Shown here in pieces: positions 1 through 34,853 of a stretch of 64,000 nucleotides of DNA (its first letter is position 1; each line of letters starts with the position of its first letter). The position numbers and the translations under genes were made by a program. Source of the stretch: a bacterium (GTDB lineage: Bacteria; Patescibacteriota; Saccharimonadia; CAILAD01; GCA-016700035); NCBI GenBank assembly GCA_020854115.1, contig JADZGC010000004.1:65665-129664 (forward strand). Direction: 5' to 3'. The notes below the pieces were generated by a model that worked only from the letters and a program-made list of their open reading frames with translations, was not told the origin of the DNA and made no database searches.

Positions 1-881
1 TCTTCTTTATAGCTGACCTTCATGCCCTAAATGCTCGACAAGACCCGGAGTTACTCCGAAGTCGTAGTCTGGATCTTCTGGCATGGCTATTGGCTTTGGG
101 TATTGATGCTGAGACTAACCCTATCTTTGTACAGTCGCAGGTATCGGCTCACGCTGAGCTTGGGTGGATCCTAAATAACTACACCACCATGGGCGAGCTT
201 TCTCGTATGACGCAGTATAAGGATAAGGCTGCAAAATCTGGTGCTGCTGGTCAGCTTGTGGCTCTATTTGACTACCCTGTTTTGATGGCGGCTGATATCT
301 TGCTATATGATGCAGATGAGGTGCCTGTGGGCGACGATCAGACTCAGCATGTTGAGCTGACAAGAGACATTGCAGAACGTATGAACAATCTGTATGGAGG
401 CAATCTGTTTCGCATTCCTACGTTCTCAAAGCCGAATGCTGCGTCGCGCGTTATGATGCTCGATGATCCAACGAAGAAAATGAGTAAAAGTGAGGCGGGG
501 GATGGATGCGTCTATTTGCTTGATACAGAAGAGTCGATAAGGCGTAAGGTGAGTCGGGCCGTAACAGATTCACTGGGCCATGTGTCGTATGATCTTGCGG
601 CCCAGCCAGGCGTTAGTAATCTGTTGGGAATAGAGAGTGAGCTTACGGGTCTGAGTATTGAGGAAGTGCTCCATAAGTATTCAGGCAGTCAGTATGGCGT
701 ACTGAAGCAGGGTGTGGCAAATGCTATTTGTAACGCCCTATTGCCGCTTCAGGAGAAATACAGTGATTTACGAGCAAATGAACGGCTGCTACTGGGTGTA
801 AGTGAAAAAGGTGCTGCTCGAGCTCGAGCGGTCGCCGATAAGAAGCTTGATCAGGTGAAGCGATCACTGGGATTGTTGTAA
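1..881 (+). CDS. trpS: Tryptophanyl-tRNA synthetase, 5'-truncated at window edge (frame open from nt 3; ORF track starts at TTG 90)
   Basis: Frame open from window start gives FFIADLHALNARQDPELL...; class I aaRS KMSKS motif (KKMSKSE); overall TrpRS-like sequence (PVLMAADILLY, VPVGDDQTQH). Confidence 0.9.
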   Translation, partial: FFIADLHALNARQDPELLRSRSLDLLAWLLALGIDAETNPIFVQSQVSAHAELGWILNNYTTMGELSRMTQYKDKAAKSGAAGQLVALFDYPVLMAADILLYDADEVPVGDDQTQHVELTRDIAERMNNLYGGNLFRIPTFSKPNAASRVMMLDDPTKKMSKSEAGDGCVYLLDTEESIRRKVSRAVTDSLGHVSYDLAAQPGVSNLLGIESELTGLSIEEVLHKYSGSQYGVLKQGVANAICNALLPLQEKYSDLRANERLLLGVSEKGAARARAVADKKLDQVKRSLGLL

Positions 882-1556: not shown

Positions 1557-2000
1557 ATGATCACTACATTGTACTCAGTACAAAAGGTCGATGAACCGTG
1601 CCATAATATGACTATGCGACTTGCAGAAATGAATCGGTTGGTATTGCTATTGTCAGTACTAGTACTTATTGGGTTGCTCGGGATGAGCGTCACATTATTC
1701 TTTTTCTTTGCTATATCGCCTAGAGACATTGGTGGCGTTGGCGTGACGGCTTGGTTTGTCAGTCTTTTTTGCGCCTTAGTTGCAGTACTTACTCTGATTC
1801 GTTACGTATTGCGGGTTCGCAAGGTAGAGTCTCAGTATAGACTCGAGCGGCTGCGCGTGATACTAAGAAGTAGTTTTATTATTAGTCTTTTTTTGGTCAT
1901 AGCATTAGCTATGCAAAGCCTGCGAGCCTTGAGCGCAGGCGATGTAGTACTTTTTCTCCTTACTCTTGCTATAATTGAGATATACTTTCGGACTAAATAA
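1557..2000 (+). CDS. Hypothetical polytopic membrane protein (start uncertain; alternative ATG at 1608)
   Basis: Hydrophobic segments LVLLLSVLVLIGLLGMSVTLFFFFAI / VTAWFVSLFCALVAVLTLI / IISLFLVIALA; ends 3 nt before pheS. Confidence 0.45.
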   Translation: MITTLYSVQKVDEPCHNMTMRLAEMNRLVLLLSVLVLIGLLGMSVTLFFFFAISPRDIGGVGVTAWFVSLFCALVAVLTLIRYVLRVRKVESQYRLERLRVILRSSFIISLFLVIALAMQSLRALSAGDVVLFLLTLAIIEIYFRTK

Positions 2001-3007: not shown

Positions 3008-5853
3008 AGATAGCTGTCGAAACAATCAATCGATACTTCAAGAAACCTCTATCTACAGATAGAATGGTGAGTTTAATTGAGCGCACAGAAATCGAAGTCG
3101 AAGAAATTTTGTATGCGAATAGGCTTGATCCAAAAATTATCTTAGCTAAAGTTCTGGATGTGTTTCCGCATCCTAATGCAGATCGACTACGACTAGTAGA
3201 TATAGAATATGGTGCGAAGCGACCAACGCGTGTAGTGTGCGGTGCTCCAAATGTAGCAGTCGGGCAGCGCGTAGCCTGGGTGCGACCCGGAGCTACGCTA
3301 CCGGACGGTACGCAGATTGACCAGGCAGTCATTCGCGGTGAGAAAAGCGCAGGAATGCTAGCTAGCGCCAAGGAATTAAGCATATCGGATGACCATTCTG
3401 GAATCGTCGTGCTTGATGAAGTAACCCACTCGCTTGGAACATCATTGTGCGACATTGTATTTTCGACTGACGTCCTGGATGTGAAGACGCCTGCGAACAG
3501 GTGGGATTACCTTAGCGGGGAGGGGATAGCACGTGAGCTGTCTGCATATGATCAGTCAATTCAGCTCCTTTTGCCAGAGCGAGGGGAATATACTTATCAA
3601 GACACCGATGTCGCGAAAGTCAAGGTTAGGGAAGAGAATAAGCGGTTTCTCAGTGCTCGCTTGCGATTAAAGAACGATGTCAAAACACCATCATGGCTTG
3701 TGGATAACTTGCTCGCGAACGGATTTGTGCCACATAATCCAGTCGTCGATATTACGAATTTTGTGATGCTAGAAACCGGACAGCCATCCCATGCCTATGA
3801 TGCGAATAAAGTCCGCGGTCCCCTTACTGTGCGTTTTGCAAAGAGCGGTGAAAAACTTACAACACTTGATGATGTGCATCGTACGCTCATGGATCAGGAT
3901 CTTGTGGTATGTGATGATTCAGGTCCGATCGGACTGGCTGGCGTGATTGGTGGCGCATCGACTCAAATTGACGCCACATCAACAGAAATAATTCTCGAAG
4001 CAGCGCATTGGGATAAGACTCTAGTACGCCGATCATCCATTCGACATGGTATTAGAACGGAAGCCTCGGCTCGCTTTGAGCGCAATCTCCCACTCCCCTT
4101 GCAGCCTTACGCATTTGCGCGCTTACTTGATTTGCTGATCGACATTTGTGGCGCAGAGATTATCGAAGGACCTTTTGACCAATTGCATGCCTGGCCGTGG
4201 CGACGTTTCTTGGGAGTTCGGTTGCGCCGTGCGGAACAATACTTGGGGATGCGGCTAAAGGAAGCGGAGATGGTCAGAGGTTTACGTAGACTTGGATTTG
4301 CTGCGCATCACTTTTCTCTCTCGGCCGAGCTGAAGTCACATCTTGGTAAGCCGTATAAATGGGGCGCAAATTTCCGTCAGGATGGTGAAGAAGCCTTTGA
4401 CTGCTCATACCTGGTAGATCGTTTGTATTCGAAGCTCGGTGTAGCCGTCGGACATACTGCCTTAGGTCAGCTACATCACGGTGAAGAAGTTGACTCAAAT
4501 GATGCATTAAGACCTGGTGACGTTGTGTTTTATGAGGGCAAAATTGAGAATTCTCACACCGACCACTATTACAAGACATTGCCAGATGGCTCGAAGCAGA
4601 AAGTAGTACTCAAGTCACCGGTACGTGTCGGACATAATGGTATATATCTCGGCAACAACCAGGTTATACATGCAGCCATATATAAATTTCGCAATGGGAA
4701 GTGGGTGAAGCGTCGACAGCAAGGGGTGATCATCTCTCCCCTGTCTGAGTTTGTTGATAATCCTGGCTACATCGGTGCGCGTCGCTATATTTCGAGCTTT
4801 AATCATATTATTGCGATCGAAGTCCCCTGGTGGCGAACAGACATTACATCAGAGACTGATATCTTCGAAGAAATGGCAAAGCTAGCGGGGTATGAAAAAT
4901 TGCCAGAAAGCCTACCGCAATTGCCACCTATGCCCGGCACAGCTCAGTCACAACAGGTTGAGAACATGCGGATTCGGCATGGCCTAGTACGCCAAGGTGC
5001 AATCGAGATAAATAGCTACAGCTTTATTTCCGAAGCGGATGTAAAATTGAGTCAAATACCAGAATCTCAAGTATTACGGATAGCGAATCCACGCTCTCCA
5101 GAGCAAGCGTTCGTACGTTCATCAATGCTAGCGAGTCATGCACGATTTTGGGCAAAGCAGTCGGCGCGTGCATCGTCGCTTGGCGCATTCGAGATCTCAC
5201 GTGTGTATGAGGCACAAGGGCTTGTCAAGCAGCCGAAAGAATCTTGGCGCCTGGCGATTAGTGCGCCTGGCGAGCAAGCTCTTCAAAACGTTCAAGGATT
5301 GCTCCATTCCGTGCTGTCAGATATGCGGGCTCAGGTGACGTTTCGGGCTGGTAGGCACGACGCAGACTCGATCAGAGGATTATCTGTGTATGTGCCGCAG
5401 CGCAGCGCCGGTTTGTTCGTCGGCTCGGAGTGGGCTGGTGTGATTGGCCAGCTACGCACTTCAGTACGACGAGGCTTCTCGTTGTCTGCTGATCTAGCGT
5501 ATGCAGAGGTGCTTATTGAGCTACTGGGATCAAGTCCTCGTCCGTATCCGATTAGGGCACTACCGCCCTATCAGCTCGTCACACGTGATATCTCGCTTGA
5601 GGTACCGGTGGGTGTTTGGTGGCAGGAGATTCGAGGCGCACTGCAGTCGGATAAGCATGTGTGGCAGGTGGAGTATCGAGAAAATTATTCGGATAGCATG
5701 CTACAAAAATCAGATAGACGAGTAGTGACCGTGCGACTGTGGCTAGATCTTGGTGCTCAACCAAGCCTTGATCAAATTGACAAGTCGGTGCAACGGGCGG
5801 TCAAGGGTCTTCAGATCCAGCTGAAACAAGCTGGTAAAATCAGCGTTCGATAG
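3004..5853 (+). CDS. pheT: Phenylalanyl-tRNA synthetase beta subunit, 949 aa, carrying an inserted NlpC/P60 domain
   Basis: N-terminal tRNA-binding (Myf) domain (VVCGAPNVAVGQRV...GEKSAGMLAS), B3/B4, B5 (LGVRLRRAEQYLGMRL..), C-terminal FDX-ACB region; about 150 aa longer than typical PheT. Confidence 0.95.
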   Translation: MKIAVETINRYFKKPLSTDRMVSLIERTEIEVEEILYANRLDPKIILAKVLDVFPHPNADRLRLVDIEYGAKRPTRVVCGAPNVAVGQRVAWVRPGATLPDGTQIDQAVIRGEKSAGMLASAKELSISDDHSGIVVLDEVTHSLGTSLCDIVFSTDVLDVKTPANRWDYLSGEGIARELSAYDQSIQLLLPERGEYTYQDTDVAKVKVREENKRFLSARLRLKNDVKTPSWLVDNLLANGFVPHNPVVDITNFVMLETGQPSHAYDANKVRGPLTVRFAKSGEKLTTLDDVHRTLMDQDLVVCDDSGPIGLAGVIGGASTQIDATSTEIILEAAHWDKTLVRRSSIRHGIRTEASARFERNLPLPLQPYAFARLLDLLIDICGAEIIEGPFDQLHAWPWRRFLGVRLRRAEQYLGMRLKEAEMVRGLRRLGFAAHHFSLSAELKSHLGKPYKWGANFRQDGEEAFDCSYLVDRLYSKLGVAVGHTALGQLHHGEEVDSNDALRPGDVVFYEGKIENSHTDHYYKTLPDGSKQKVVLKSPVRVGHNGIYLGNNQVIHAAIYKFRNGKWVKRRQQGVIISPLSEFVDNPGYIGARRYISSFNHIIAIEVPWWRTDITSETDIFEEMAKLAGYEKLPESLPQLPPMPGTAQSQQVENMRIRHGLVRQGAIEINSYSFISEADVKLSQIPESQVLRIANPRSPEQAFVRSSMLASHARFWAKQSARASSLGAFEISRVYEAQGLVKQPKESWRLAISAPGEQALQNVQGLLHSVLSDMRAQVTFRAGRHDADSIRGLSVYVPQRSAGLFVGSEWAGVIGQLRTSVRRGFSLSADLAYAEVLIELLGSSPRPYPIRALPPYQLVTRDISLEVPVGVWWQEIRGALQSDKHVWQVEYRENYSDSMLQKSDRRVVTVRLWLDLGAQPSLDQIDKSVQRAVKGLQIQLKQAGKISVR
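4340..4800 (+). other. NlpC/P60 papain-like cysteine hydrolase domain embedded in PheT (B5 region)
   Basis: GKPYKWGAN...FDCSYLV (Cys), RPGDVVFY, GHNGIYLGNNQVIHAA (His, His), QGVIISPLSEF...YIGARRY aligns motif-for-motif with Spr/MepS-type NlpC/P60. Confidence 0.8.
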
Positions 5854-7853: not shown

Positions 7854-10376
7854 ATGAGCGAATTTGCAAGTCTCATTCTTCTCGTCATGTTGGTTGTCAT
7901 GTTGGGTGTCGGTGGTGTTGTATTCTGGATTGTGCGCCGCCGCTTGCAGCACGCTAAGGACATCGAGCGCAGCCTTAAGATGGTGCCATTACTCCTAAAG
8001 TTACCTCCGGCCGAGGAAGATGAGAGTCAGCGTGATGAGCGTGAGAAAATCAAAGAAAATGTCTCACGTGCTGAGGGCATATACACGCTGCTTTCAGGTA
8101 TCGCCACAAATCGTCGTTGGCTGTATTCTCAGCGGCATATATCTTTTGAGATCGTGGCCCATGGCGAGCAGATCTACTTCTATGTTGCGGTGCCGGTTGC
8201 GCTTGTAACTTCTGTCGAAAAGGCTCTGGTCGCGGCCTATCCGACCATACAGATTATCCCAGCCGAGGATCACAACATCTTCTCTGAGACGGGCAAGATA
8301 GCGACTATTACAGGTGGGGAGATGCACCTGACTGGAGACTCATTTTATCCCTTGCAGACCTATAAGACGTTGGAATTCGACCCTTTAGCGGGCATGCTAT
8401 CAGCATTGACGCGCCTGAAACCTGATGAGGGTGTGGTAGTGCAAGTGATGTTTCGGCCGGCCAATCCGAAGTGGGTCATCAAGGCTCGCGAGTTCGCCAA
8501 GGGGCTCTTGAATCCGCAGCGAGCAAAAATGCATGATCCGATGCATATAGCGGCATCGGTGGCACGAGCCCCATTTGGTTCACCTGACTGGCAGGCTAAA
8601 GAACAGATGCAAGACCCATCGAAACAGGCCGATTCGATTGACCAGAAGTTGGCTCAAGCAGTTGAGGAAAAGGCGGCCCAGCCGGCCTTTGAAACGCTTA
8701 TCCGAATTGTGACGAGCTCGGATGATTTTGGTCGTAGTAAACTGCTCTTACAGGATGTCGTGAATGGCTTTGCACAGTTTGCACTACCAGGTAGTAATAG
8801 CTTTCAATTCGTCGCCGATCCATCACAGCAGCAGCTTGCGACCGACTTGATTTTTCGATTCTTCCCGGCGCAAAAAAAGAAAGTGATCCTAAATAGCTCG
8901 GAGCTCGCGACGCTATTCCATTTGCCGAGCAGTCATTCAGAGCTGGCTGCGCCACTTGAACGCAAGGGCCTTAAGGAGGTTGCTTCACCTGCGGACTTGC
9001 CGGACGCCGGGATTGTCCTGGGAAGCAACTTCTTCCAGGGCAAGGAAAAGGTCGTTCGGCTTACGGATAAGGATCGCACACGCCACATGTACATTCTTGG
9101 TCAGACCGGTACCGGTAAGTCTGTCTTGCTTGGCGATATGATTGTGCAGGATATGATGGCCGGGAAGGGCTTGTGCTTTATTGACCCGCATGGTGAGGTG
9201 GCTGAAGAAATTATTGCTAAGGTTCCGCCGCATCGAGCTGAGGATGTGATTTACTTCAATCCAGCCGATATGGCTATGCCGCTCGGAATGAATATCTTAG
9301 AAACTGATCCGGCGCATCCAGAACAAAAAGACTTTGTGATTCAAGAAACGTTGGCGATGCTCTATAAGATGTATGACCCAAATAACCAGGGTTTTATCGG
9401 CCCGCGCTTTGAGCAGTGGTATCGTAATGCGGCTCTGACGGTAATGGCTGACCCGGCTGGGGCGACCTTCCTTGAGATCCCCAAGCCGTTCTTGGACGAT
9501 GACTTTTTGAAGGCGAAATTCAAATATGTGACAGATCCGACAGTGCAAGACTTTTGGATTAATGAAATGGGTCAAACCTCTGAACGCGATAAGAGCGAGA
9601 TGCTTGGCTACTTTGTATCAAAGTGGGGCGCCTTCCAGTCAAACGAAACGATGCGCAATATTATGGGGCAGCATCAGAGTGCGTTTGATTTTGGCAAGGT
9701 GATGGATGAGGGCAAGATCCTGATTGTCAATCTCTCGAAGGGCCAAGTCGGTGAGCTGAATGCAAAATATCTTGGGATGATTTTCGTGATCAAAGTGCTT
9801 GCTGCAGCCTTCGCTCGCTCAGGCAGGCCAAAAGATCAAATGCCGCTCTTTACACTCTACGTCGATGAGTTTCAAAACTTCGCTACTGAGTCATTTGCAA
9901 CGATTCTGTCTGAAGCCCGTAAGTACAACCTGTGTCTTGTCGTGGCAAACCAGTTTATTGGTCAGTTGACCGATGAGATTAAGGGTGCGGTATTTGGCAA
10001 CGTTGGTACGCTTTTCACTTATCGCTGTGGGCCAGATGATGCTGAATATCTAGAGAAGCAGTTCCTGCCAAGCTTTGATAAGACTGACCTCGTCAATATG
10101 CCAAACCTCTTGGGTGCGGTGAAGTTGATGGCAAATGGGTTGCCGACGAAGCCTTTTACGCTCAAGCCGATCTTCCCGCCCATAGGAGGATATGGTGATG
10201 CGAATGTGGCGCTGAATGTGAAAGAGCTGTCGCGCAATAAGTATGGTCGACCAAAGGAGGAAGTAGCTAAGGAGGTAGCAGCTGCGCTGACGATGCGTGA
10301 TGAGCCAAGGCCAAGTAGTGCACCAGCTCCCGCCGAGCAAGCTTCAGTACCAGCTGGTTCTCAGTCAGCACAGTAA
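7854..10376 (+). CDS. Membrane-anchored P-loop ATPase, VirD4/TraG/TraD-like (coupling-protein / HerA-FtsK superfamily)
   Basis: N-terminal TM (LILLVMLVVMLGVGGVVFWIV); Walker A ILGQTGTGKSVLL; Walker B-like LFTLYVDEFQNF; 840 aa. Confidence 0.6.
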   Translation: MSEFASLILLVMLVVMLGVGGVVFWIVRRRLQHAKDIERSLKMVPLLLKLPPAEEDESQRDEREKIKENVSRAEGIYTLLSGIATNRRWLYSQRHISFEIVAHGEQIYFYVAVPVALVTSVEKALVAAYPTIQIIPAEDHNIFSETGKIATITGGEMHLTGDSFYPLQTYKTLEFDPLAGMLSALTRLKPDEGVVVQVMFRPANPKWVIKAREFAKGLLNPQRAKMHDPMHIAASVARAPFGSPDWQAKEQMQDPSKQADSIDQKLAQAVEEKAAQPAFETLIRIVTSSDDFGRSKLLLQDVVNGFAQFALPGSNSFQFVADPSQQQLATDLIFRFFPAQKKKVILNSSELATLFHLPSSHSELAAPLERKGLKEVASPADLPDAGIVLGSNFFQGKEKVVRLTDKDRTRHMYILGQTGTGKSVLLGDMIVQDMMAGKGLCFIDPHGEVAEEIIAKVPPHRAEDVIYFNPADMAMPLGMNILETDPAHPEQKDFVIQETLAMLYKMYDPNNQGFIGPRFEQWYRNAALTVMADPAGATFLEIPKPFLDDDFLKAKFKYVTDPTVQDFWINEMGQTSERDKSEMLGYFVSKWGAFQSNETMRNIMGQHQSAFDFGKVMDEGKILIVNLSKGQVGELNAKYLGMIFVIKVLAAAFARSGRPKDQMPLFTLYVDEFQNFATESFATILSEARKYNLCLVVANQFIGQLTDEIKGAVFGNVGTLFTYRCGPDDAEYLEKQFLPSFDKTDLVNMPNLLGAVKLMANGLPTKPFTLKPIFPPIGGYGDANVALNVKELSRNKYGRPKEEVAKEVAAALTMRDEPRPSSAPAPAEQASVPAGSQSAQ

Positions 10377-20587: not shown

Positions 20588-20617
20588 TTGACTTACCTTT
20601 AGGAGATCAGGTAAAAT
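20588..20617 (+). promoter_or_regulatory. rRNA (16S) promoter TTGACT-N18-TAAAAT
   Basis: ttgact 20588-20593, taaaat 20612-20617; ~310 nt upstream of 16S. Confidence 0.5.
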
Positions 20618-20777: not shown

Positions 20778-20802
20778 TTTGACAAGTGAAACGTGTCAGT
20801 TC
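20778..20802 (+). other. 16S leader half of putative RNase III processing stem (pairs with 22640-22663)
   Basis: tttgacaagtgaaacgtgtcagttc is complementary (22 WC + 1 GU of 24) to gagctgacacgtttcactggtcaa downstream of 16S. Confidence 0.6.
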
Positions 20803-20929
20803 AACTTAAAAAAGTTTTAAAGTTGTTTTGTATTCGTCTAGATGACAGGATTACATGCATTTCGAGTCTTCACTGTTGGCTCGAAAGCATTCCAAGATAA
20901 CAGTGAAATGATTCTTTGAATCATTTGTG

Positions 20930-22456
<1,527 letters not shown>

Positions 22457-22664
22457 AGGGAGAAAGCTGACAGGTAACTGTTTTGGCGCCTTGAGTGCCA
22501 ACAGACCGTGATTGGTTCGAGCTAAAGAGCTTGCTCTTTGTGCTCACCACACATCATGACTCTGGCTATCCTAGGTCGATCGTTCACTTTTTATGAACGA
22601 TTCCTGTCATCTTGGATACAACACTTTAGCTTTTCTATCGAGCTGACACGTTTCACTGGTCAAT

Positions 22665-22696
22665 AAAAAACACCGCCTAATTCTGGCGGTGTTTTG
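22665..22696. terminator. Bidirectional intrinsic terminator (ends the 16S transcription unit and the convergent minus-strand gene)
   Basis: aaaaaa-CACCGCC-taattct-GGCGGTG-tttt. Confidence 0.7.
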
Positions 22697-22976: not shown

Positions 22977-23163
22977 ATGTGCTATTGTACGGGTATTTGA
23001 GGTGTTAGTAAAAAATGGTGCCTCTTTACGCTGAGGCTCGAACCTATTTTATCTCAAAAATGTAAGTTTGTGCTAAATTGCTGCTCCGTGCGCAAATGGA
23101 AGTCCGTAGAGCCAAATGCTACCAGCCCCGCCGCCTGCGCCAGCAGAGCTGTCGCGCGCCCAG

Positions 23164-23250
23164 CCCAGCCAGACTAACTTTTTGCATTTTTTTAGATTTC
23201 CCCCGCCAAAAAATTCTTTTTAATTTAGGAAAAAGTTAGTCTGGCTGGGC
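23164..23250. repeat. Long imperfect palindrome/hairpin (20-bp arms, 46-nt spacer) formed by two copies of the ccagccagactaacttttt repeat
   Basis: cccagccagactaacttttt (23164-23183) vs aaaaagttagtctggctggg (23231-23250). Confidence 0.6.
23224..23249. repeat. Left copy of 26-bp perfect inverted repeat atttaggaaaaagttagtctggctgg
   Basis: Exact reverse complement of 25411-25436. Confidence 0.7.
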
Positions 23251-23452
23251 CGTTCGCCTGCCATAAATGGCAAGAGACGGCGGGGTTTCGTCCCTGCTGA
23301 CTTCTAATTTTACTTAAACCGAAAGTCCGTGTCGCGAACAAAAAATAAGGCCAGCGGCTACGCCGCTGACATATGCAGTTGTAGGCAATGGCTACATGCA
23401 TAAACTAGGAAAATAGCGCCGACTATAGCACTATATCTCAAAGCGAAAAACA

Positions 23453-24526
23453 CGTATAGAACTCAGGACCTTTGCAACATTTCAGCAGGCGTCAGTAACT
23501 GCAAGCCTAAGTGTACGCGCTTAGTGTTGTAGTAGTCGAGATACGTCGTAAGCTTATCTCGCTGGCACTTAAGCGACACACTCCTGTTCCAGTAGTAGCC
23601 AATACATTCGGTTTGGATGGTGCGGTTAAATCGCTTAATGTGAGCGTTGTCATTCGGTCGGTGCAGCCGACTGTGTCTAGTAGCAATGCCATGAGACCGC
23701 ATTACTTGCTCAAAATAGCGTCCGTACTCCGGCCCATTGTCAGCTTGTATCATAGTCACTCTAAAGCCCCAACTGTCTTGAGCTTCCAGTACAGCTTGAG
23801 CCGCTCGTCCCGGACTCAGCTTTGCCGCCAGGGTAACGTAAGCCATTCGGCTGAATAAGTCTATGACTGTGTAGTAGTACAGTCTCCTACCGCTACGGGG
23901 GTCAACATGGTGGATGGTATCCGTCTCAACTAATTCACCTGGTCTCACGGCATATGGACGATGAGGGTTATCTCGTTTGAGTCGTGGCTTCCTGGCACCA
24001 TCAAAGCAGTGATGACGCCGCAGAATACGACGCACACTGCTGAGGCTAAGTCTTACTCCAAGAGTGTTTGTTACGTAATACCAGACAATCTCAGCACAAC
24101 GCATTAACTTAGCCCGGGCAGCTAGAACGAGCCTGACTGTCGCCCCGGGAATAGCATTAGGACAAGTATGCGGCCTAGAGCTTAGTGTAGCGATTCGCCA
24201 GCTACAAGCAGTTAGCTTGTGAGCTAGGCTAACCGATCGGCTAGGCCGGTTAGGGTTGTCAAATTGGACATATCGGTTAAGCTTGTCCCATTTGCGTTTC
24301 CAGCGCCAGATGGTTGAGCGATGAACACCACACTTTCTTGCGACAACAGCCAGAGGTTGTTGGTCTTCGACCAGTAACCGCATAGCGGTTGCTCTGGCAC
24401 TAGGTAAGTTAGGGTTGATAGAATAAGCCATGGTAGGCTCCTTTCTTATTAGTTGTTGATACTAACAGTTTAGGACGCCTACCTTTTTTAGTTCAATTTA
24501 GGTTGCAAAGGTCTTGAGTTACTACG
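23453..24526 (-). mobile_element. IS481-family insertion sequence (1074 bp) with imperfect ~26-bp terminal IRs and perfect 6-bp target-site duplication AAAACA
   Basis: IRL cgtatagaactcaggacctttgcaac (23453-23478) vs IRR-rc cgtagtaactcaagacctttgcaac (24502-24526); flanking aaaaca at 23447-23452 and 24527-24532. Confidence 0.85.
23463..24431 (-). CDS. IS481-family DDE transposase (integrase core domain)
   Basis: 322 aa; ETDTIH, IQADNGPEY, RPNDNAHIKRFNRTIQ, N-terminal HTH (VARKCGVHRSTIWRWKRKW). Confidence 0.9.
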   Translation of the reverse strand: MAYSINPNLPSARATAMRLLVEDQQPLAVVARKCGVHRSTIWRWKRKWDKLNRYVQFDNPNRPSRSVSLAHKLTACSWRIATLSSRPHTCPNAIPGATVRLVLAARAKLMRCAEIVWYYVTNTLGVRLSLSSVRRILRRHHCFDGARKPRLKRDNPHRPYAVRPGELVETDTIHHVDPRSGRRLYYYTVIDLFSRMAYVTLAAKLSPGRAAQAVLEAQDSWGFRVTMIQADNGPEYGRYFEQVMRSHGIATRHSRLHRPNDNAHIKRFNRTIQTECIGYYWNRSVSLKCQRDKLTTYLDYYNTKRVHLGLQLLTPAEMLQRS

Positions 24527-24532
24527 AAAACA

Positions 24533-24562
24533 TTGACAAATACTATATGTTTATTATAAAAT
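24533..24562 (+). promoter_or_regulatory. Putative promoter TTGACA-N18-TAAAAT for the high-GC ORF, immediately adjacent to the IS481 duplication
   Basis: ttgaca 24533-24538 directly follows TSD 24527-24532; taaaat 24557-24562; SD aaggag 24601-24606. Confidence 0.45.
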
Positions 24563-24615
24563 ATACCGAGTGTTTCTCAATCCCGAGAGACTCGTACCTA
24601 AGGAGTGTGAGGCAG

Positions 24616-25236
24616 ATGCCCACAGGCTACACGTCCGACCTCTACGAGGGCAAGGATGTCGAGTTCTCTGATTTCGTCATGAAGTGCGCGAGGGCGTTCG
24701 GTGCTCTCGTTGAGCTCCGTGACGAGCCGCTCGACTCGCCTGTCCCGACGGAGTTCAAGCCGAGCAGCTACCACACGGAGCAGCTCGAGAAGGCCGAGGC
24801 GGACGTCGCTCGCATCAAAGCGTGGGACGACACCGAAGCTGACCGCCAGGCACAGCTCGCTTTCGAGCGCGCAACACATGAGTACCAAGAGTCGCAAGCT
24901 CGCGAGCTCGCGATGCGTGAGCGCTACGAGACAATGCTCGCCAAGGTTCAGGCTTGGACGCCGCCCACCCAGGAGCATCGCGAACTCAAGAACTTCATGG
25001 TCAAGCAACTAGAGAAGTCCATCGACTTCGACTGCAACACGACCTACCCGGAAGTTCCGGAGCGCCTCAGCGGTGCCGCCTACAAGGAGCAGCAACTCCA
25101 TTCGGCCCGTTGGCAGGTCTCGTACCACACCGAGCACGGTGAGGAAGAGATCAAGCGAGCCAAGGAGCGTACCGATTGGGTTCGGGCCTTGCGCCAGAGC
25201 CTCACGGAGTCCTCTGACACAACTGTCGAGGCCTGA
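24616..25236 (+). CDS. Hypothetical protein encoded by compositionally foreign high-GC DNA (GC3-rich), 206 aa
   Basis: ATG 24616 behind AAGGAG; codons overwhelmingly G/C-ending (gac ctc tac gag ggc aag ...); several overlapping alternative-frame ORFs on both strands typical of high-GC DNA; the 24514 upstream extension in the ORF track is AT-rich and non-coding. Confidence 0.65.
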   Translation: MPTGYTSDLYEGKDVEFSDFVMKCARAFGALVELRDEPLDSPVPTEFKPSSYHTEQLEKAEADVARIKAWDDTEADRQAQLAFERATHEYQESQARELAMRERYETMLAKVQAWTPPTQEHRELKNFMVKQLEKSIDFDCNTTYPEVPERLSGAAYKEQQLHSARWQVSYHTEHGEEEIKRAKERTDWVRALRQSLTESSDTTVEA

Positions 25237-25410
25237 GAGCACGAAACCCTGCACATGCAGGTCGGTAGGCAGAAAGTCTAGTAAGAGATCGTGGCAAAAC
25301 CACAATCACTGAACAACTTTCTACCTACCGTATAACCCGTCCATGAAGCGTAAAACAGCCATGCTGATGAGCCGTAAAGCGGCGAAACGGTTAGAAAAGT
25401 AGAATTAAAA

Positions 25411-25436
25411 CCAGCCAGACTAACTTTTTCCTAAAT
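25411..25436. repeat. Right copy of 26-bp perfect inverted repeat ccagccagactaactttttcctaaat
   Basis: Exact reverse complement of 23224-23249; lies 15 bp beyond the 3' end of tRNA-Ile. Confidence 0.7.
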
Positions 25437-25451
25437 CAAAAAGTTTCTTTA

Positions 25452-25528
25452 TGGTGGGCTTGGCAGGACTCGAACCTGCGACCTCGTCATTATCAGTGAC
25501 GCGCTCTAACCAGCTGAGCTACAAGCCC
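25452..25528 (-). tRNA. tRNA-Ile (anticodon GAU), CCA encoded
   Basis: Minus-strand cloverleaf gggcttgtagctcagctggttagagcgcgtcaCTGATAAtgacgaggtcgcaggttcgagtcctgccaagcccacca. Confidence 0.9.
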
Positions 25529-25561
25529 ACAATATATGGAAGGTTTAATCGATAGATATCA

Positions 25562-25638
25562 TGGTGGAGCATATCGGATTCGAACCGATGACCCCCTGCT
25601 TGCAAAGCAGGTGCTCTAGCCAGCTGAGCTAATGCCCC
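25562..25638 (-). tRNA. tRNA-Ala (anticodon UGC) with G3:U70 identity pair, CCA encoded
   Basis: ggggcattagctcagctggctagagcacctgcTTTGCAAgcagggggtcatcggttcgaatccgatatgctccacca. Confidence 0.9.
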
Positions 25639-25778
25639 ACGATTTGTTCCTAGCAAAATACATCAAATTGATATGAATATCGTATCTGAAGAACTGGCAT
25701 ATTGTACCTGTTTTTTATGATTTGAGCAAGGTCAATGCTCGGTTGTAAAAAGTCCTCCCCCACCGTAGCATAAATACT

Positions 25779-26450
25779 ATGCAAGTGTTACTCGTAGTTG
25801 TACTGACGGCAGCCGTGTTTGGCGGCATGGCATTTTACTTACTCAGTCGCGATAATGGTCAGGAGCCTATATGGGCGCTAGCTACAGTATTTCTTATAGG
25901 GCTCGCAGCAGCTCAACTCGCAGGTGTTATTAATGACAAGCTCATCCCGTACCCAGTTGATACGTCTATCGGCTTCGTTGGCGCTTTGGTGGTGGGGATT
26001 ATCCCTGGAATCTACGAGGAGATACTGAAGAGCCTGCCTGTAGCTTTCTTTGTTGGTAACCAGTCGTTTTTTCGGCAGCCAAGTGATGGGGTGATATATT
26101 TCGCGTTTTCTGGCCTGGCATTTGGCTTATTAGAGAACATTCAATATACTGTCCAGTTTGGGGCAATGGTTGGCTTTGACCGACTCCTGACATTATTATT
26201 CTTTCATGCTGCGACAAATGGCATATTTGGCTGGTATTTCTTCCGTGCTCGTCGGCGAGGTGACTGGAAGATTGCAGTACGTGCGGCGATCTTTTTGATG
26301 CTAGCCCATGCCGTATACAACTTCTCGGTCGCATATGCTGGGGCCATCCCATTGCTTCGTATGGTCGCCTACGTGATCTCAGTTGTTCTGAGTGTGTTGC
26401 TGATTCGAGTCTATGTATTGGCGCGCAAGGACGATAGACAAGCACGGTGA
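25779..26450 (+). CDS. PrsW/CPBP-like intramembrane protease family protein
   Basis: Polytopic; YEEILKS (EExxK), FFHAATNG and LAHAVYNF (HxxxN x2). Confidence 0.6.
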   Translation: MQVLLVVVLTAAVFGGMAFYLLSRDNGQEPIWALATVFLIGLAAAQLAGVINDKLIPYPVDTSIGFVGALVVGIIPGIYEEILKSLPVAFFVGNQSFFRQPSDGVIYFAFSGLAFGLLENIQYTVQFGAMVGFDRLLTLLFFHAATNGIFGWYFFRARRRGDWKIAVRAAIFLMLAHAVYNFSVAYAGAIPLLRMVAYVISVVLSVLLIRVYVLARKDDRQAR

Positions 26451-26495
26451 AGTCAGTCACAATATAAGATAAGCATAACTAATTTTTGGAGAATA

Positions 26496-27374
26496 ATGGA
26501 TCCGCGTATAGCATCGGGGGATGTAATGCAGCCAGGTGGCGGGACTCCCGCCGTACAATTGAATCCAAATCCGAGTATCGGAGTGGGGGAGATTGTTCGT
26601 CCAAACCCTGAGCAGTCAGTTGCTGCCGTACAGGCGCCGGTATATCCTCAAGCGCAGGCTATGGTGGTGCCTCCTATTGCCCCCAGCCCTATGCCACCCT
26701 TACCACAAGCGGCAGCACCCCAGCCTGTGCAAAACGGAGTACCGCAAGCACCAATAATGACTGCTCCATCGCCACCTCCCCAGATGATAGTACCTCCACC
26801 GGTAGCAATGCAGGCAGCTAACCAGCCGGTACCCGCCCAGCCAATGCCGCAGCCAATAGCTCCGCAGAGCCAGCCTGCTCCCGCACAGTTTGCGCCCGCC
26901 CCGCAGCAACCAGCACCGACGGCGCTTGTGCAAGGCGCTCCAATGATGGATGCGCTTGCACCGCGCCCCGCAGCTCCCTCGGTAGCTCCGGTGGCTACTC
27001 AGCCCCCCTCGGCGCAAGCTCCAGTACCAGCTCCGGTATCCACTAGTACAGTGAAATCAAACAAGCGATCAAGCCTAGCGCTTGCCGCTCTACTTGTCGG
27101 GGCAATGTCGGTTTTGTTAGAAATCTTTATTAGTAATCAGCTGAATTACATTATCGCTGTTGCTCCTGTAAGCCTTGCTGCCATAGGGTTGGGAGTACCG
27201 GCTCTCGGGAGCCCAAGACGTGGGCTTGCAATAGCTGGCGTAGTACTCGGCTCGCTGTCATTGGTCTCGGTAATTATCCTGTTTAGTGTTAATGCGGCAA
27301 CGCAGAGTCGCTGTAGCATTAACCCGACAAGCGACCCGCAGTGCCAGGCGGTACAACCAACAGTAGGAGGATAA
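26496..27374 (+). CDS. P/A/Q-rich low-complexity protein with C-terminal TM helices (DUF4190-like architecture)
   Basis: N-terminal PAPQ-rich region; C-terminal LALAALLVGAMSVLLEIFI / IIAVAPVSLAAIGLGV / LAIAGVVLGSLSLVSVIILF. Confidence 0.5.
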   Translation: MDPRIASGDVMQPGGGTPAVQLNPNPSIGVGEIVRPNPEQSVAAVQAPVYPQAQAMVVPPIAPSPMPPLPQAAAPQPVQNGVPQAPIMTAPSPPPQMIVPPPVAMQAANQPVPAQPMPQPIAPQSQPAPAQFAPAPQQPAPTALVQGAPMMDALAPRPAAPSVAPVATQPPSAQAPVPAPVSTSTVKSNKRSSLALAALLVGAMSVLLEIFISNQLNYIIAVAPVSLAAIGLGVPALGSPRRGLAIAGVVLGSLSLVSVIILFSVNAATQSRCSINPTSDPQCQAVQPTVGG

Positions 27375-27378
27375 TAAG

Positions 27379-28695
27379 ATGTCAGTACAAACTATAGATA
27401 TGCGTCGCAGCCCAATCGGTGCCGCAATTATATGGGGTTCAGTAGGGATGGTGTTGTTACTCTGGGCTTTGGTAGTACCTTTGCAGGGTCGCGTGGCGAA
27501 TAGCGCTGTTATCTGGAAGAGCCTCGCAAATATCGGAGCATTTGCCGGCACAATCTTATACAGCTGGTCGGTAATCCTTTCGGCTCGGTGGCGTTGGGTA
27601 GAGAAGTTATTTGGGGGGCTTGATAAGGTCTATCATTGGCATCACATTACGGGTGGCCTGTCGTTCTTGCTTTTGGCCCTTCATCCTTTTTTCTTGACCA
27701 TCCGACTAGCGGGTATTCGTCCGGATAAGCTTAGCTCGCTCTGGGTGCTCGGATCGAATTGGCAGCTCAATTTTGGCATAATCGCACTTTATGCAATGCT
27801 ATTGATTCTGCCGGCCACTGTGTTCTTGCGTCTGCGCTATCAGGTCTTTCTCTGGATTCATCGTATTCTGGGCCTGGTCTTCTTTTCAGGCTTCATCCAT
27901 GCTTTCTTGGCAAGCCAAGGCAACTTGGCGAAGTCGCAGCTGCTGTGGTGGTACGTGATGGTCTTTTGTCTGCTGGCGGTCTACGCCTTTTTCTATCATT
28001 CGATACTAGGGCGATTCGTGCCAGGACGGTTTCGTTACGCAGTCGCACAAGTGCGCAAGCATGGTGACTCGACAGTCGATATTATCCTTGAGCCAAAAGG
28101 GCGCTTGATGAACTTCATGGCTGGCCAATTTGCGTTTGTGAGTTTTGTCGGACATCCGATCAGCGATGAGGCGCACCCGTACTCCATGGCATCGTCGTCC
28201 CAACAGAGGCAGCTACGGTTTATCGTCAAGGTGCTCGGTGACTTCACGGCTTCCTTGTTGGCACTGAAGCCAGGGACGACGGCATACATAGAGGGCCCGC
28301 ATGGCGGCTTCACTTTTCGGCATGTGCGTGGCTCGAAGCAAGTATGGATTGCCGGCGGGATCGGCGTCACGCCATTTCTCGCTATGGCGCAAGCACTGCC
28401 GTCGAAAAGGTATTCGGTTGATTTTTATTACTGCACACCCTCCAGTGCGGAGGCGTATTTCATGCCTGAGTTTCAAGCTATAGCCAAGCGCAATCCAAAC
28501 TTCCGTCTACATCTATTCTGTCAGGATAAGGAGGGATTTTTGACCGCCGATATTCTGTCGAAGCAACATGACTGTCAGCGGACTGACTTCTTGATTTGTG
28601 GTCCGCCGCCGATGATGCGAGCGATACATGATGGCTTGCGCAAGCAGGGCGTGGGCGAGAAGCATATTCTCTATGAGGACTTTGGTTTCCGCTAA
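27379..28695 (+). CDS. Ferric-reductase/NADPH-oxidase-like flavocytochrome (ferric reductase TM domain + FAD-binding + NAD-binding)
   Basis: Bis-His TM motifs (HWHHITGG...LALHPF; HRILGLVFFSGFIHAFL); FAD motif HPYS; NAD-binding GGIGVTPF; C-terminal CGPPPMM. Confidence 0.8.
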   Translation: MSVQTIDMRRSPIGAAIIWGSVGMVLLLWALVVPLQGRVANSAVIWKSLANIGAFAGTILYSWSVILSARWRWVEKLFGGLDKVYHWHHITGGLSFLLLALHPFFLTIRLAGIRPDKLSSLWVLGSNWQLNFGIIALYAMLLILPATVFLRLRYQVFLWIHRILGLVFFSGFIHAFLASQGNLAKSQLLWWYVMVFCLLAVYAFFYHSILGRFVPGRFRYAVAQVRKHGDSTVDIILEPKGRLMNFMAGQFAFVSFVGHPISDEAHPYSMASSSQQRQLRFIVKVLGDFTASLLALKPGTTAYIEGPHGGFTFRHVRGSKQVWIAGGIGVTPFLAMAQALPSKRYSVDFYYCTPSSAEAYFMPEFQAIAKRNPNFRLHLFCQDKEGFLTADILSKQHDCQRTDFLICGPPPMMRAIHDGLRKQGVGEKHILYEDFGFR

Positions 28696-28733
28696 TCCTT
28701 GGGGTCGAGCGGGCAATCTGTCATAATGATGGT

Positions 28734-29432
28734 ATGGGCCAAATCAGTGATTTCCTATATGCGTATCAAGCCCAGTCTGATGCTGAGCGGGCGATTATTA
28801 TCTTGCCCGAGATCTTTGGCGTCAAAGACTTCACGCGTGAGCTGGCAGGCAAGGTACAGATAGAGCTCGGCTGGAATGGGTATGTGCTTGACCATTTCTA
28901 TGCTGTAACCGGTGAGGTGCAGACTTTTGCGTATGACGACATGTCGGGGATGGAGATCATGGAGCGTATGACTGGAGAACTATTTTTGCCATTATTGGCG
29001 CAGGCAGTTGGCATGATACAAGAAGCGCAGCCCAAACTAAAGCATCTTGCGGTCTGGGGATTTTGCTTTGGGGGCAAGCTCGCGTATCTCTCGGGAGTTA
29101 ACCCCCATGTGACCGATATTGTTTCCTGCTATGGTGGCGCCAGTGTGCAACCGGGATTTTATGCAGGCGATTCGGTGGTCCAGGCATTAGCTCGAGCACG
29201 CTATGCGGATAAGAGTCTCAAGATCTTGGGTGTATATGGTGAGCATGATCCAATGATTCCTGCAGCTGATCGAGAAAAAATATCTACATTACTTACTGAA
29301 TCTAAGATCTCACACCAGATCAAGGTGTATGACGCTGGCCACGCATTCTTCAATGAGGATCGAGCAGATCGATATGTCGAAGCTGCGGCTAAAGCTGCGT
29401 GGAATGATGTGTCAAACTGGCTTAAGCGGTAG
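28734..29432 (+). CDS. Dienelactone hydrolase family protein
   Basis: ILPEIFGV, nucleophile elbow GFCFGG, GHAF motifs. Confidence 0.8.
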   Translation: MGQISDFLYAYQAQSDAERAIIILPEIFGVKDFTRELAGKVQIELGWNGYVLDHFYAVTGEVQTFAYDDMSGMEIMERMTGELFLPLLAQAVGMIQEAQPKLKHLAVWGFCFGGKLAYLSGVNPHVTDIVSCYGGASVQPGFYAGDSVVQALARARYADKSLKILGVYGEHDPMIPAADREKISTLLTESKISHQIKVYDAGHAFFNEDRADRYVEAAAKAAWNDVSNWLKR

Positions 29433-29445
29433 TACCGGCAGTTAA

Positions 29446-30141
29446 TTAAGCGCCGAATCGACGCTGTCTATTGGCGTAATCTTCTAGCGCAGCTGAGAGG
29501 TCAGTTTCATCGAAGTCCGGCCACTTCTTGTCTATAAAGTAGAGCTCGGCATAAGCTGCTCGCCAAAGCATGAAGCCACTAAGGCGTTTTTCACCAGAAC
29601 TGCGGATAATCAAATCGACTGGTGGGACATCGGGCACGTATATATTCTGGCTGATTGTTTCCTCAGTAATCTCCTCTGGATTCATGCCAGAACGTACAAT
29701 CCGCTTCGTGGCATCAACGATCTCCTCATGGCCGCCATAGTTTAGACACAGTACGAGTGTTCCGTTTGTATTATTCTTCGTATGGTCCTCGGCTTTTCGG
29801 ATAAGCTTGAGAATTTTTTCTGACAGTCGATCGTCATTGCCGGCAATACGTATGCGCACACCCCGAGTGTGGATGTCATCGAGCTCATGCTTCGCAACCC
29901 ATTCGAGTAGTTTCATGATAAATGCAACTTCTTCGGTGCTGCGCTGCCAGTTCTCGCGCGACCACACATAAGCGGTGACGTATTTGACGCCGCTCTCGAG
30001 GGTCTTGAGGCCTATTTCTTTGAAGTTTTTATACCCCTGACGGTGGCCTTCTAGGATAGGGAGGCCCTGTTCTTTTGCCCAGCGGCGGTGACCGTCAAGA
30101 ATAAAGCCGACGTGGGTCGGGATGTGTGATTCGTGTTGCAT
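29446..30141 (-). CDS. uppS: Isoprenyl transferase (undecaprenyl-diphosphate synthase); true start at MQHESHIP (ATG 30139-30141)
   Basis: HVGFILDGHRRWA, GYKNFKEIG, LCLNYGGHEEI, RSSGEKRLSGFMLWR; the 74-aa upstream extension in the ORF track has no homology. Confidence 0.85.
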   Translation of the reverse strand: MQHESHIPTHVGFILDGHRRWAKEQGLPILEGHRQGYKNFKEIGLKTLESGVKYVTAYVWSRENWQRSTEEVAFIMKLLEWVAKHELDDIHTRGVRIRIAGNDDRLSEKILKLIRKAEDHTKNNTNGTLVLCLNYGGHEEIVDATKRIVRSGMNPEEITEETISQNIYVPDVPPVDLIIRSSGEKRLSGFMLWRAAYAELYFIDKKWPDFDETDLSAALEDYANRQRRFGA

Positions 30142-30557
30142 ACGTGTATTTGTGAAACCATTATATCCTACTCGAGCTGCGACAGAAGTCAAACACCATC
30201 TGATTTTTATCGAGAAATAGTATTGACCCCGGATGTGCAGTCGTGCTACCATCGTTGACAGGTATACATAAGGAGTAGTCCACGCGTGAGTAACCGATCC
30301 ACATTTGGAGGCACCCGCCACTAAGCTGATTTTAGCTCGGGGATTCACGCGTGGCCGCCTCAAAAAAGCGCCACGTTTTTATTTTGCTCATTGACATAAG
30401 CATCTTTGATAGTAATCACTGATTCTAGCCGACGACTATCAAATATAAGGTGCGATCATAGAGAATAAGGGTAATACAAATGTGATTTAATGTTAGAGAT
30501 AGTAATAGTAAACCAGCTTGCGATTGTGGACTGGTTATTTCTAACGAACCGACAACG

Positions 30558-30584: not shown

Positions 30585-30596
30585 AAACGAGAAAAA

Positions 30597-33780
<3,184 letters not shown>

Positions 33781-33947
33781 TTCTTTGCGTGACATTGTGT
33801 GATGAATTCGTTCTTCATACAAGTCACAGCATGAGACGGCTAACACGCTCTTGAAGAGTGTTGTCGAAATAAGTCACGTTTGTATCTTATTCTCTATGTG
33901 TGCCAATGAGCATCGATCTGGTAGCTTTGATTTACATTGAGGAGACA

Positions 33948-34058
33948 TCGGACCGGTGCTTATAGCGAAGAGGTTCCACCGGTTCCCATCCCGAACACCG
34001 AAGTTAAGCTCTTCTGCGGCGATGATACTGCTCTGCGGGAAAGTAGCGCGGTGCCGGA
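33948..34058 (+). rRNA. rrf: 5S ribosomal RNA
   Basis: tcggaccggtgcttatagcgaagaggttccaccggttcccatcccgaacaccgaagttaag...gggaaagtagcgcggtgccgg. Confidence 0.9.
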
Positions 34059-34068
34059 TTTATCATGA

Positions 34069-34223: not shown

Positions 34224-34853
34224 TTATGCCTCATTGTTATATCTAAATTCGCATTCCTTAAGATGTAGGTTGAAATGGTCGTGCCTAAGACCTCGTAATT
34301 TGGATAGACGTACTTTTGCTACTCCCCAGAGGTTTTCAATGCCATTGATGTGATTCCTGGGATTAGCGTGGCTTACAAACTCATTCTCTCCATGGTTTAC
34401 CCTGAAATGTTGCTTGTAGCCCCAATCTACTAAGCCATCGTAGGCCTTCCAGCCGTTACTGTAGACCGTAGAATCACCAGTTATCCTTTCTTGTATGATC
34501 TGTTTTAGCACATCTCTGGAAGCGTTCTTTGCGACTTGGGTGTACACGCTATCCCCACGTTTTATGAGCCCAAAGACAACAATCTTCTTACCGGCTCCGC
34601 GTCCGCGTACACCACGGACTCTGCGTGGACCAAAATAGCTTTCGTCTATCATCTTTTACCACTCAGAGGGCTTGTGGCATCACAGTAACGTACAATGCAG
34701 CTATGTATGTAGGTTATGCTTCGTTAATTGCTTACAGTTTAACATTATAATGTTTGCTATCTGAATAGCTGTTAAATCCTCGTAAAAGTAACGCGCAATC
34801 TCACGATACTTCTTATCTGAAATTCGGGGACGTTTCTGGTACCGGTCGCTCAT
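34224..34853 (-). pseudogene. IS1595-family (ISXO2-like) transposase pseudogene with internal deletion: N-terminal 50-aa fragment (34701-34853) + DDE-domain fragment (34224-34652)
   Basis: N-frag MSDRYQKRPRISDKKYREIARYFYEDLTAIQIANI... then stop; C-frag MIDESYFGPRRVRGVRGRGAGKKIVVFG...; about 100 aa missing between them. Confidence 0.75.

Follow-up and report, generated by a model that had tools for sequence, protein, structure and literature searches.

Results

The tRNA pair lying between the genes for 16S and 23S rRNA

The DNA studied here is a stretch of 64,000 nucleotides (the window) from a bacterium assigned to the Saccharimonadia (Patescibacteriota), corresponding to positions 65,665 to 129,664 of contig JADZGC010000004.1 in assembly GCA_020854115.1. 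The window carries 16S, 23S, and 5S ribosomal RNA (rRNA) genes on the plus strand, and between 16S and 23S lie two transfer RNA (tRNA) genes, tRNA-Ile(GAU) and tRNA-Ala(UGC), encoded on the minus strand (Table 1). This orientation had been proposed in a preliminary description made from the sequence alone, which named ARAGORN as a means of confirmation. ARAGORN placed both genes on the minus strand, in agreement with Rfam (tRNA gathering score, 29), and detected no other tRNA in the 64 kb. The encoded CCA of both tRNAs and the G3:U70 identity pair of tRNA-Ala, noted at the same time, were confirmed by direct reading of the sequence.

On their own strand, tRNA-Ala (5' end at 25638) comes first and tRNA-Ile (5' end at 25528) second. 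From the Rfam and ARAGORN coordinates, 2997 bp separate the end of 16S from tRNA-Ile and 4952 bp separate tRNA-Ala from 23S, matching the distances of about 3 kb and 5 kb estimated beforehand, and the whole 16S-23S gap is 8136 bp. The pair departs from the canonical rrn spacer on two counts: the tRNAs are carried by the minus strand, opposite to the plus-strand rRNA genes, and the Ile-then-Ala order is not kept. GC skew was positive across the whole window, so the plus strand is probably the leading strand; the minus-strand tRNA unit would then be transcribed head-on to replication.

Table 1 Features of the rRNA locus, in window coordinates
Feature	Position	Strand	Basis and remarks
16S promoter-like site, TTGACT-18-TAAAAT	20588-20617	plus	Consensus scan, 10/12 matches
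16S processing stem	20779-20811 / 22631-22663 (arms)	plus	33-nt inverted repeat, 82% complementary; brackets 16S
16S rRNA	20927-22454	plus	Rfam RF00177, 1485 bits, full length
Intrinsic-terminator-like hairpin past 16S	22667-22695	plus	11-pair stem followed by T-rich tail; A-run ahead, T-run behind
Small membrane-like protein gene, 85 aa	22719-22976	minus	Open reading frame list; antisense to 16S, downstream of tRNA-Ile on the minus strand
Small-gene promoter-like site, TTTACT-17-TACAAT	22984-23012	minus	Consensus scan; ends ~7 nt ahead of the ATG
Insertion, ~2.4 kb	23050-25451		Between small-gene promoter and tRNA-Ile 3' end; equivalent in relative L003 is ~80 nt
Hairpin, 102 bp	23156-23257		Two inverted copies of repeat CCAGCCAGACTAACTTTTT; 28-nt arms, 89% complementary; direct copy at 23165-23183
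IS481-family-like element	23460-24520	minus	19-nt terminal inverted repeats 23460-23478 / 24502-24520, 95% complementary
Phage-family gene, function unassigned	24616-25236	plus	phrog_8905, E 5.7e-40
Repeat copy	25411-25450		Ends 1 nt ahead of tRNA-Ile 3' end; inverted partner 23209-23248; 40-nt arms, 90% complementary
tRNA-Ile(GAU)	25452-25528	minus	ARAGORN; Rfam RF00005, 76.5 bits, E 5e-15; encoded CCA
tRNA-Ala(UGC)	25562-25638	minus	ARAGORN; Rfam RF00005, 70.2 bits, E 2.8e-13; encoded CCA; first gene of the minus-strand unit
Sigma70-type promoter motif of the tRNA-Ala/tRNA-Ile unit	25701-25729	minus	-35 TTGCTC 25729-25724; 17-nt spacer; -10 TACAAT 25706-25701
Four-gene cluster: PrsW-family protease, unknown open reading frame, ferric-reductase-like flavoprotein, dienelactone hydrolase (DLH)	25779-29432	plus	Pfam; divergent from the tRNAs
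uppS, undecaprenyl-diphosphate-synthase family	29446-30363	minus	Pfam Prenyltransf, 2.1e-77; just upstream of 23S
23S rRNA	30591-33785	plus	Rfam
5S rRNA	33952-34059	plus	Rfam

The antisense layout in relatives

Relatives were fetched by means of homologues of the PrsW-family protease encoded beside the tRNAs, and their contigs, numbered with an L, were scanned for tRNAs and rRNAs. The sole match to PrsW in the genome collection was L003, a metagenome-assembled genome (MAG) of an uncultured Candidatus Saccharibacteria (75% identity); a metagenome scan with the PrsW alignment recovered no relative. L003 has 16S(+), the small open reading frame (ORF)(-), Ile(-), Ala(-), and PrsW(+), followed further on by UppS(-), 23S(+), and 5S. 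L004, L005, and L006 (PrsW 67% identical) show the same layout with four extra ORFs past 16S, L006 being a short contig that extends from the small ORF to the ferric-reductase gene. L007 and L008 (76%) have 16S(+), the small ORF(-), Ile(-), a 146-aa ORF, Ala(-), and PrsW(+), with TatC after DLH and no 23S within 7 kb. In L013 (45%) the order is 16S(+), small ORF(-), Ile(-), Ala(-), PrsW(+), and the contig of L011 (45%) starts at Ala(-) and continues into PrsW(+). Because the antisense Ile(-)/Ala(-) layout is present in relatives from independent assemblies, it is best read as an old, stably inherited state of the window lineage rather than a recent one.

The same assemblies bear on whether the segment was simply placed in the wrong orientation, the misassembled inversion that the preliminary description wished to see excluded. 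Short-read contigs do break at this place: three Logan and ENA contigs have a PrsW that is identical or closely related, and of these L001 (1-46) and L010 (1-47) stop within tRNA-Ala and L002 about 175 nt upstream of PrsW. These contig ends suggest branching of the assembly graph at the conserved tRNAs. Against an artefact, this orientation recurs, bordered on each side by unique sequence, in independent assemblies from different samples and pipelines, namely the NCBI MAG CAZTHB010000006, ENA assemblies ERZ27246970, ERZ27309394, and ERZ17987696, and JGI assemblies 3300009083 and 3300032420, and a conserved promoter motif lies on the matching strand (see below). A misassembly is very unlikely, and we give it only the faintest chance.

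A promoter motif conserved ahead of the tRNA unit

Being antisense to the rRNA genes, the tRNAs require a promoter of their own, as had been pointed out. The further statement that no sigma70 promoter is visible to the right of 25638 did not survive comparison with the relatives, in which the minus-strand motif TTGCTC-17-TACAAT is conserved. Its -10 element ends 62 nt ahead of the tRNA-Ala 5' end. When the sequence upstream of tRNA-Ala was aligned for six loci, the conserved block was cTTGyy-17-GGTAcAATATGyCAGTT, the surrounding intergenic sequence being divergent. Among the matches listed, the pattern TTGNNN-16..18-TANNNT was found upstream of the first tRNA in 12 of the 16 Ala-then-Ile loci, and six of the seven Ile-then-Ala loci have cTTGnnn-17-TTAAAT, L020 having a variant with an 18-nt spacer; a sigma70-like motif thus precedes the first tRNA in nearly every listed locus, in either orientation. 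In L004 the long leader that separates tRNA-Ala from the conserved promoter block additionally contains, within 9700-10000 (-), 22 nt that repeat part of the tRNA-Ala 5' end, GGGGCATTAGCTCAACTGGCTG.

Conservation of the tRNAs and a helix around tRNA-Ile

The tRNA-Ile sequence is the same in the window, L003, L007, and L013, and that of tRNA-Ala is the same in the window, L003, L004, and L007. In L004 the tRNA-Ile acceptor stem has changed from GGGCTTG/CAAGCCC to GGGTCTG/CAGACCC with every pair retained. Since the sequences are the same across most lineages and the L004 changes are compensatory, both tRNA genes are under selection.

In several relatives the leader and trailer of the tRNA-Ile precursor would form a helix of 12-18 bp that lengthens the acceptor stem and takes the CCA end into its pairing (L003:1095-1227, L004:9363-9495, L013:1589-1721, and L020:1890-2022; folding z-scores, -4.7 to -5.5). 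The helix sequences vary from locus to locus in a manner that looks like covariation, and no such leader-trailer helix was found for tRNA-Ala. Around the window tRNA-Ile (25424-25556) the helix is gone (z-score, -2.0) because an insertion, described below, replaced the trailer.

The relative L119, whose 16S is about 96% identical to that of the window, has at the tRNA-Ile position (1672-1748, minus strand) a gene with three anticodon-arm changes, by which GAT becomes CAT and one pair of the stem is lost. These could be a sequencing error, or mark a pseudogene or an altered tRNA.

The loss of the helix in the window and the damaged anticodon arm of L119 would be expected if the genes were decaying spacer relics with functional copies elsewhere in the genome, and our view is limited to 64 kb. 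Such decay is at odds with the full cloverleaf scores (76.5 and 70.2 bits), the encoded CCA, and G3:U70. It also fits poorly with tRNA sequences that are the same across lineages whose PrsW is only 45-76% identical to that of the window, with the compensatory stem changes of L004, and with the conserved promoter motif. We regard relics as improbable.

Three cassette layouts in more distant contigs

More distant contigs were obtained by a metagenome scan with the tRNA-Ala 3' end and analyzed with ARAGORN, blastn, and tblastn, with confirmation by Rfam. The survey was selected by tRNA-Ala sequence and covers contigs among the matches listed, with 16S 78-86% identical to that of the window. With the rRNA genes set to plus, at least three layouts were found. 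Type A (16S+, Ala+, Ile+, 23S+) is complete in L083 and also seen in L097, which has no 23S on its contig, and in L091, which ends at Ala. Type B (16S+, Ile-, Ala-, 23S+) comprises the window clade, L021, L043, and L119 on the 16S side, L049 on the 23S side, and L092, which has the small ORF and tRNAs only. Type C (16S+, Ala-, Ile-, 23S+) is complete in L020 and represented by L032 and L086 on the 16S side and L090 on the 23S side.

In L083 a strong terminator hairpin past 16S is followed by TTGTCT-17-TACAAT, Ala, Ile, TTGACT-17-TAATAT, and 23S. L021 has the tRNA pair flipped together with its promoter motif, and the pre-23S promoter motif of L083 stays put. Type B is read here as the inversion product of the type A cassette. 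Over the 3' 440 nt of 16S, L021 and L083 share 92% identity with each other but only about 80% with the window; such closeness combined with opposite orientation suggests that the cassette was inverted more than once.

These layouts refine the earlier proposal that the spacer had been inverted and displaced. An inversion at some evolutionary point is plausible, because L083 has Ala-then-Ile co-oriented with 16S and 23S, as do L097 and L091 on the 16S side. A single flip of a canonical 16S-Ile-Ala-23S spacer does not account for the window, because such an inversion would put Ala(-) next to 16S, where Ile(-) is found.

Both orientations in related lineages, and in particular the opposite orientations of L021 and L083 at 92% identity of the 16S 3' end, could also come from a programmed element that flips reversibly within populations. 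No inverted repeats flank the whole tRNA cassette in L003, L021, L083, L020, or L013, however; the strong inverted repeats around the cassette in these five flank tRNA-Ile alone. Nor did a Pfam scan of window ORFs from the 16S-23S interval show a recombinase domain, and the orientation is fixed in the window clade across several samples. A programmed switch is therefore highly improbable.

An insertion at the tRNA-Ile 3' end

In an alignment of the window with L003, homology stops at about 23045 and returns at 25452, the tRNA-Ile 3' end. The intervening insertion carries an element resembling the IS481 family of insertion sequences (IS), a phage-family gene, and repeats. The transposase gene of the element (23463-24431) matched Pfam rve, rve_3, and HTH_23; its best NCBIfam family was IS481 (6.3e-48), with 163.7 bits, under the curated cut-off of 224. 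By tblastn, the phage-family ORF is 43% identical to Bacillus phage J5a and has matches in 47 phage records (INPHARED), and a scan of viral contigs gave no match. Its GC content is 61%, against 49% for the whole window, and the gene is likely of foreign origin.

The 26-bp repeat at 25411-25436 reported earlier is real: an exact second copy of the 26-mer lies on the other strand at 23223-23248, with 0 matches expected by chance. The 26/40-nt repeat was not found in any of 133 fetched loci. We considered whether the tRNA-Ile 3' end had served as the insertion site of an integrative element or prophage and rejected this, no integrase having been found in 23050-25451 and only a weak tRNA-like fragment near 23017-23047; the insertion with its phage-family ORF suggests a mobile-DNA remnant at most.

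The preliminary description favored recombination between inverted repeats, or an IS, as the cause of the antisense arrangement, and named synteny in sister genomes as a check. The 40-nt inverted repeat pair (23209-23248 / 25411-25450) and the IS481-like element do adjoin tRNA-Ile, as a recent inversion or displacement in the window genome through them would have it. Yet the repeats bracket 23209-25450 and leave the tRNAs outside, and a spacer ordered Ile-Ala does not give Ile(-), Ala(-) when inverted once. All relatives recovered, which come from independent assemblies, have the antisense layout, and five relative lineages share the Ile(-)/Ala(-) orientation and have neither the IS nor the repeat; in particular, the IS481 element, the phage-family ORF, and the repeat were not found in L003, L004-L006, L007/L008, or L013. 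We accordingly give a recent rearrangement of this kind very little credence. Because relatives are antisense without these three components, the IS481-like element, phage-family gene, and repeat are best regarded as a later insertion specific to the window genome and not as the cause of the layout.

The spot just 3' of tRNA-Ile gathers insertions, as the IS481-like element and the phage-family gene do in the window. Lineage-specific ORFs occur in the same 16S-to-tRNA-Ala stretch, four past 16S in L004 and one between the tRNAs in L007, and those inserted in L004, L007, and L013 had no Pfam match. In L013, moreover, an incomplete piece of the tRNA-Ile 3' end recurs about 50 nt downstream of that gene.

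The 16S unit and the small membrane-like protein gene

An equivalent of the 16S promoter-like site, TTGACA-18-TAGAAT/TAGACT, is kept in L004 and L007. Of the processing stem, the 3' arm is kept in L003 and the 5' arm in L004 and L007. L003 has a perfect 14-nt inverted repeat at the position equivalent to the hairpin past 16S. With an A-run ahead of it and a T-run behind it, that hairpin is possibly bidirectional and may terminate both strands, including transcription from the convergent small ORF.

The 85-aa translation of the small ORF is conserved in L003, L004, and L007. A homology search with it gave two close matches only, and it had no Pfam or NCBIfam match. By tblastn, homologues were found directly past 16S on the opposite strand in L013, L119, L020, L032, L097, L091, and L086, so that this placement occurs in all three layout types; in L092 the homologue lies beside tRNA-Ile on a contig without 16S. 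The TACAAT...ATG block of the small ORF is kept in L003. Just upstream of the small-ORF promoter, at 23017-23047 (-), a terminator-like hairpin overlaps a weak fragment that resembles a T-arm, AGGTTCGAGCC...GGCACCA, also given as AGGTTCGAG...CACCA. This fragment may be a decayed copy of a tRNA 3' end or the ancestral terminator of the tRNA unit.

The PrsW cluster, the 23S-5S unit, and the rest of the window

The gene order from PrsW to DLH is common to L003, L004, L007, L011, and L012, and L003 and L004 have uppS where the window has it. Lineages with the PrsW cluster differ in where 23S-5S lies: it comes after uppS in the window and in both L003 and L004, and in L007, L011, and L012 tatC and other genes come after DLH, with no 23S on the available downstream sequence. 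An alignment of the window with L003 and L004 revealed a conserved TTGACA-containing block about 200 nt upstream of 23S, which may hold the promoter of 23S-5S.

The window 23S is 3195 nt long against 2925 nt for the model, about 270 nt extra, and the 23S of L003 and L004 measures 3249 nt; no intron family was detected in the window. Mobile DNA bordering the rRNA genes is indicated a second time directly past 5S, where 34224-34652 (-) encodes 142 aa of a fragmentary IS1595-family transposase. Elsewhere in the window are the core genes pheT, gyrB, gyrA, infB, priA, a relA/spoT-family gene, and a class I aminoacyl-tRNA synthetase gene. In the beta chain of phenylalanyl-tRNA synthetase (3004-5853, plus strand; 949 aa), residues 448-521 are an inserted NlpC/P60 peptidase domain, which makes the protein an unusual fusion.

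Comparison with known rRNA gene arrangements

In Brewer et al. (bioRxiv 10.1101/705046), rRNA genes are called unlinked if 16S and 23S are more than 1500 bp apart, and unlinked genes are described as widespread and common in the candidate phyla radiation (CPR); at 8136 bp, the window falls in this class. The survey of Lui et al. 2021 (PMC8172020) lists 27 of 34 circularised CPR genomes as unlinked and two Saccharimonadia genomes as operonic, linked by two tRNAs and one to three ORFs, and reasons that one promoter cannot serve both rRNA genes when opposite-strand genes lie between them. In the window, the small ORF, the IS transposase, both tRNAs, and UppS are such minus-strand genes. The locus is therefore like those of both surveys in its distant 16S and 23S, in the protein and opposite-strand genes between them, and in its CPR host. 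It differs in that the surveys classify by rRNA distance and strand, antisense spacer tRNAs not being described in the text consulted. No earlier description of antisense Ala/Ile spacer tRNAs in Saccharibacteria or CPR was found in the literature searched.

Group I introns or insertions in rRNA genes are likewise given as a CPR trait in bioRxiv 10.1101/705046, and Rfam detected group I introns in rRNA genes of related contigs. They lie inside the 23S of L083 and L049, and L043 has a group I intron match between 16S and the tRNAs.

The rRNA cluster of Borrelia consists of 16S, tRNA-Ala, an oppositely directed tRNA-Ile, and tandem 23S-5S (PMC4370689). It resembles the window in having 16S unlinked from 23S-5S, in keeping Ile and Ala tRNAs in the gap, and in having tRNA transcription run against that of the rRNA genes. 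Borrelia differs in that only tRNA-Ile is described as opposite, 23S-5S is duplicated, and the lineage is unrelated, whereas in the window both tRNAs are antisense and adjacent, in the order Ala then Ile, with one shared promoter-like motif.

With the canonical rrn operon (16S, tRNA-Ile(GAU), tRNA-Ala(UGC), 23S, 5S) the window shares the same two tRNAs, their anticodons, and their identity elements between 16S and 23S. It departs from that operon in the opposite strand and reversed own-strand order of the tRNAs, in the promoter- and terminator-like signals of 16S itself, in the separate promoter motif of the tRNA pair, and in a spacer that contains five protein genes and a mobile insertion.

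Discussion

We consider it quite probable that the window contains an autonomous antisense tRNA cassette within a fragmented rRNA locus, a cassette that is old in the lineage and was re-oriented more than once. The rRNA locus would be split into separate units, each with its own signals. The 16S unit would have its promoter-like site, processing stem, and terminator hairpin. The minus-strand Ala-Ile cassette, with its own sigma70-type promoter motif, would be aimed at the 16S 3' end, with the small membrane-protein gene further downstream, and so would converge on 16S and the small ORF. The divergent PrsW-to-DLH cluster and opposite-strand uppS come next, and 23S-5S would form the last unit. 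The cassette would derive by inversion from a unit that read Ala then Ile in the direction of the rRNA genes. Because the tRNA pair would no longer depend on read-through from the rRNA genes, and would in this sense be self-sufficient, its orientation is probably close to selectively neutral and free to change.

Several observations weigh against this interpretation. The promoter and terminator assignments are inferred from motifs and conservation. The tRNA-unit motif has only 8 of 12 consensus matches and a weak -35, and because of this score it was not listed by a simple consensus scan, which may account for its having escaped notice in the preliminary description. In L004 the conserved promoter block is about 210 nt from the tRNA, and in L049 and L029 no promoter motif was found within 110 nt of the first tRNA. 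No clear terminator was found 3' of the window tRNA-Ile, where the insertion would have replaced the ancestral trailer. The 16S tree (neighbour-joining, midpoint-rooted, about 440 nt) is compatible with either direction of change, from sense to antisense or the reverse. It is possible that other copies of the Ile or Ala tRNA lie elsewhere in the genome, outside the 64-kb window. Finally, at the place of E. coli position 912 the sequence of the window 16S is AAACTCAAAGG; a U there has been described as a signature of TM7, and the Saccharibacteria label is therefore drawn from the one MAG, L003.

More tentatively, the Ala and Ile tRNAs in this part of the CPR may generally form a free-standing, self-promoted cassette whose orientation and order have changed repeatedly, and the helix predicted around the tRNA-Ile precursor may direct it to a maturation like that of rRNA, specific for double strands. 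We hold this broader proposal to be possible, with the odds against it.

The locus is a modest variation on known split rRNA operons, which adds detail to the CPR picture and does not change it. Methods based on long 16S-internal transcribed spacer-23S amplicons, and rRNA-operon databases, assume a short co-oriented spacer and would miss a lineage with an 8-kb spacer. The locus is also a weak point for short-read assemblers, and relatives carry differing insertions on either side of tRNA-Ile. For the biology of these bacteria, the spacer tRNAs stayed between the rRNA genes after the apparent loss of co-transcription, and the comparison points to a loss of constraint on orientation as soon as every unit is supplied with a promoter.

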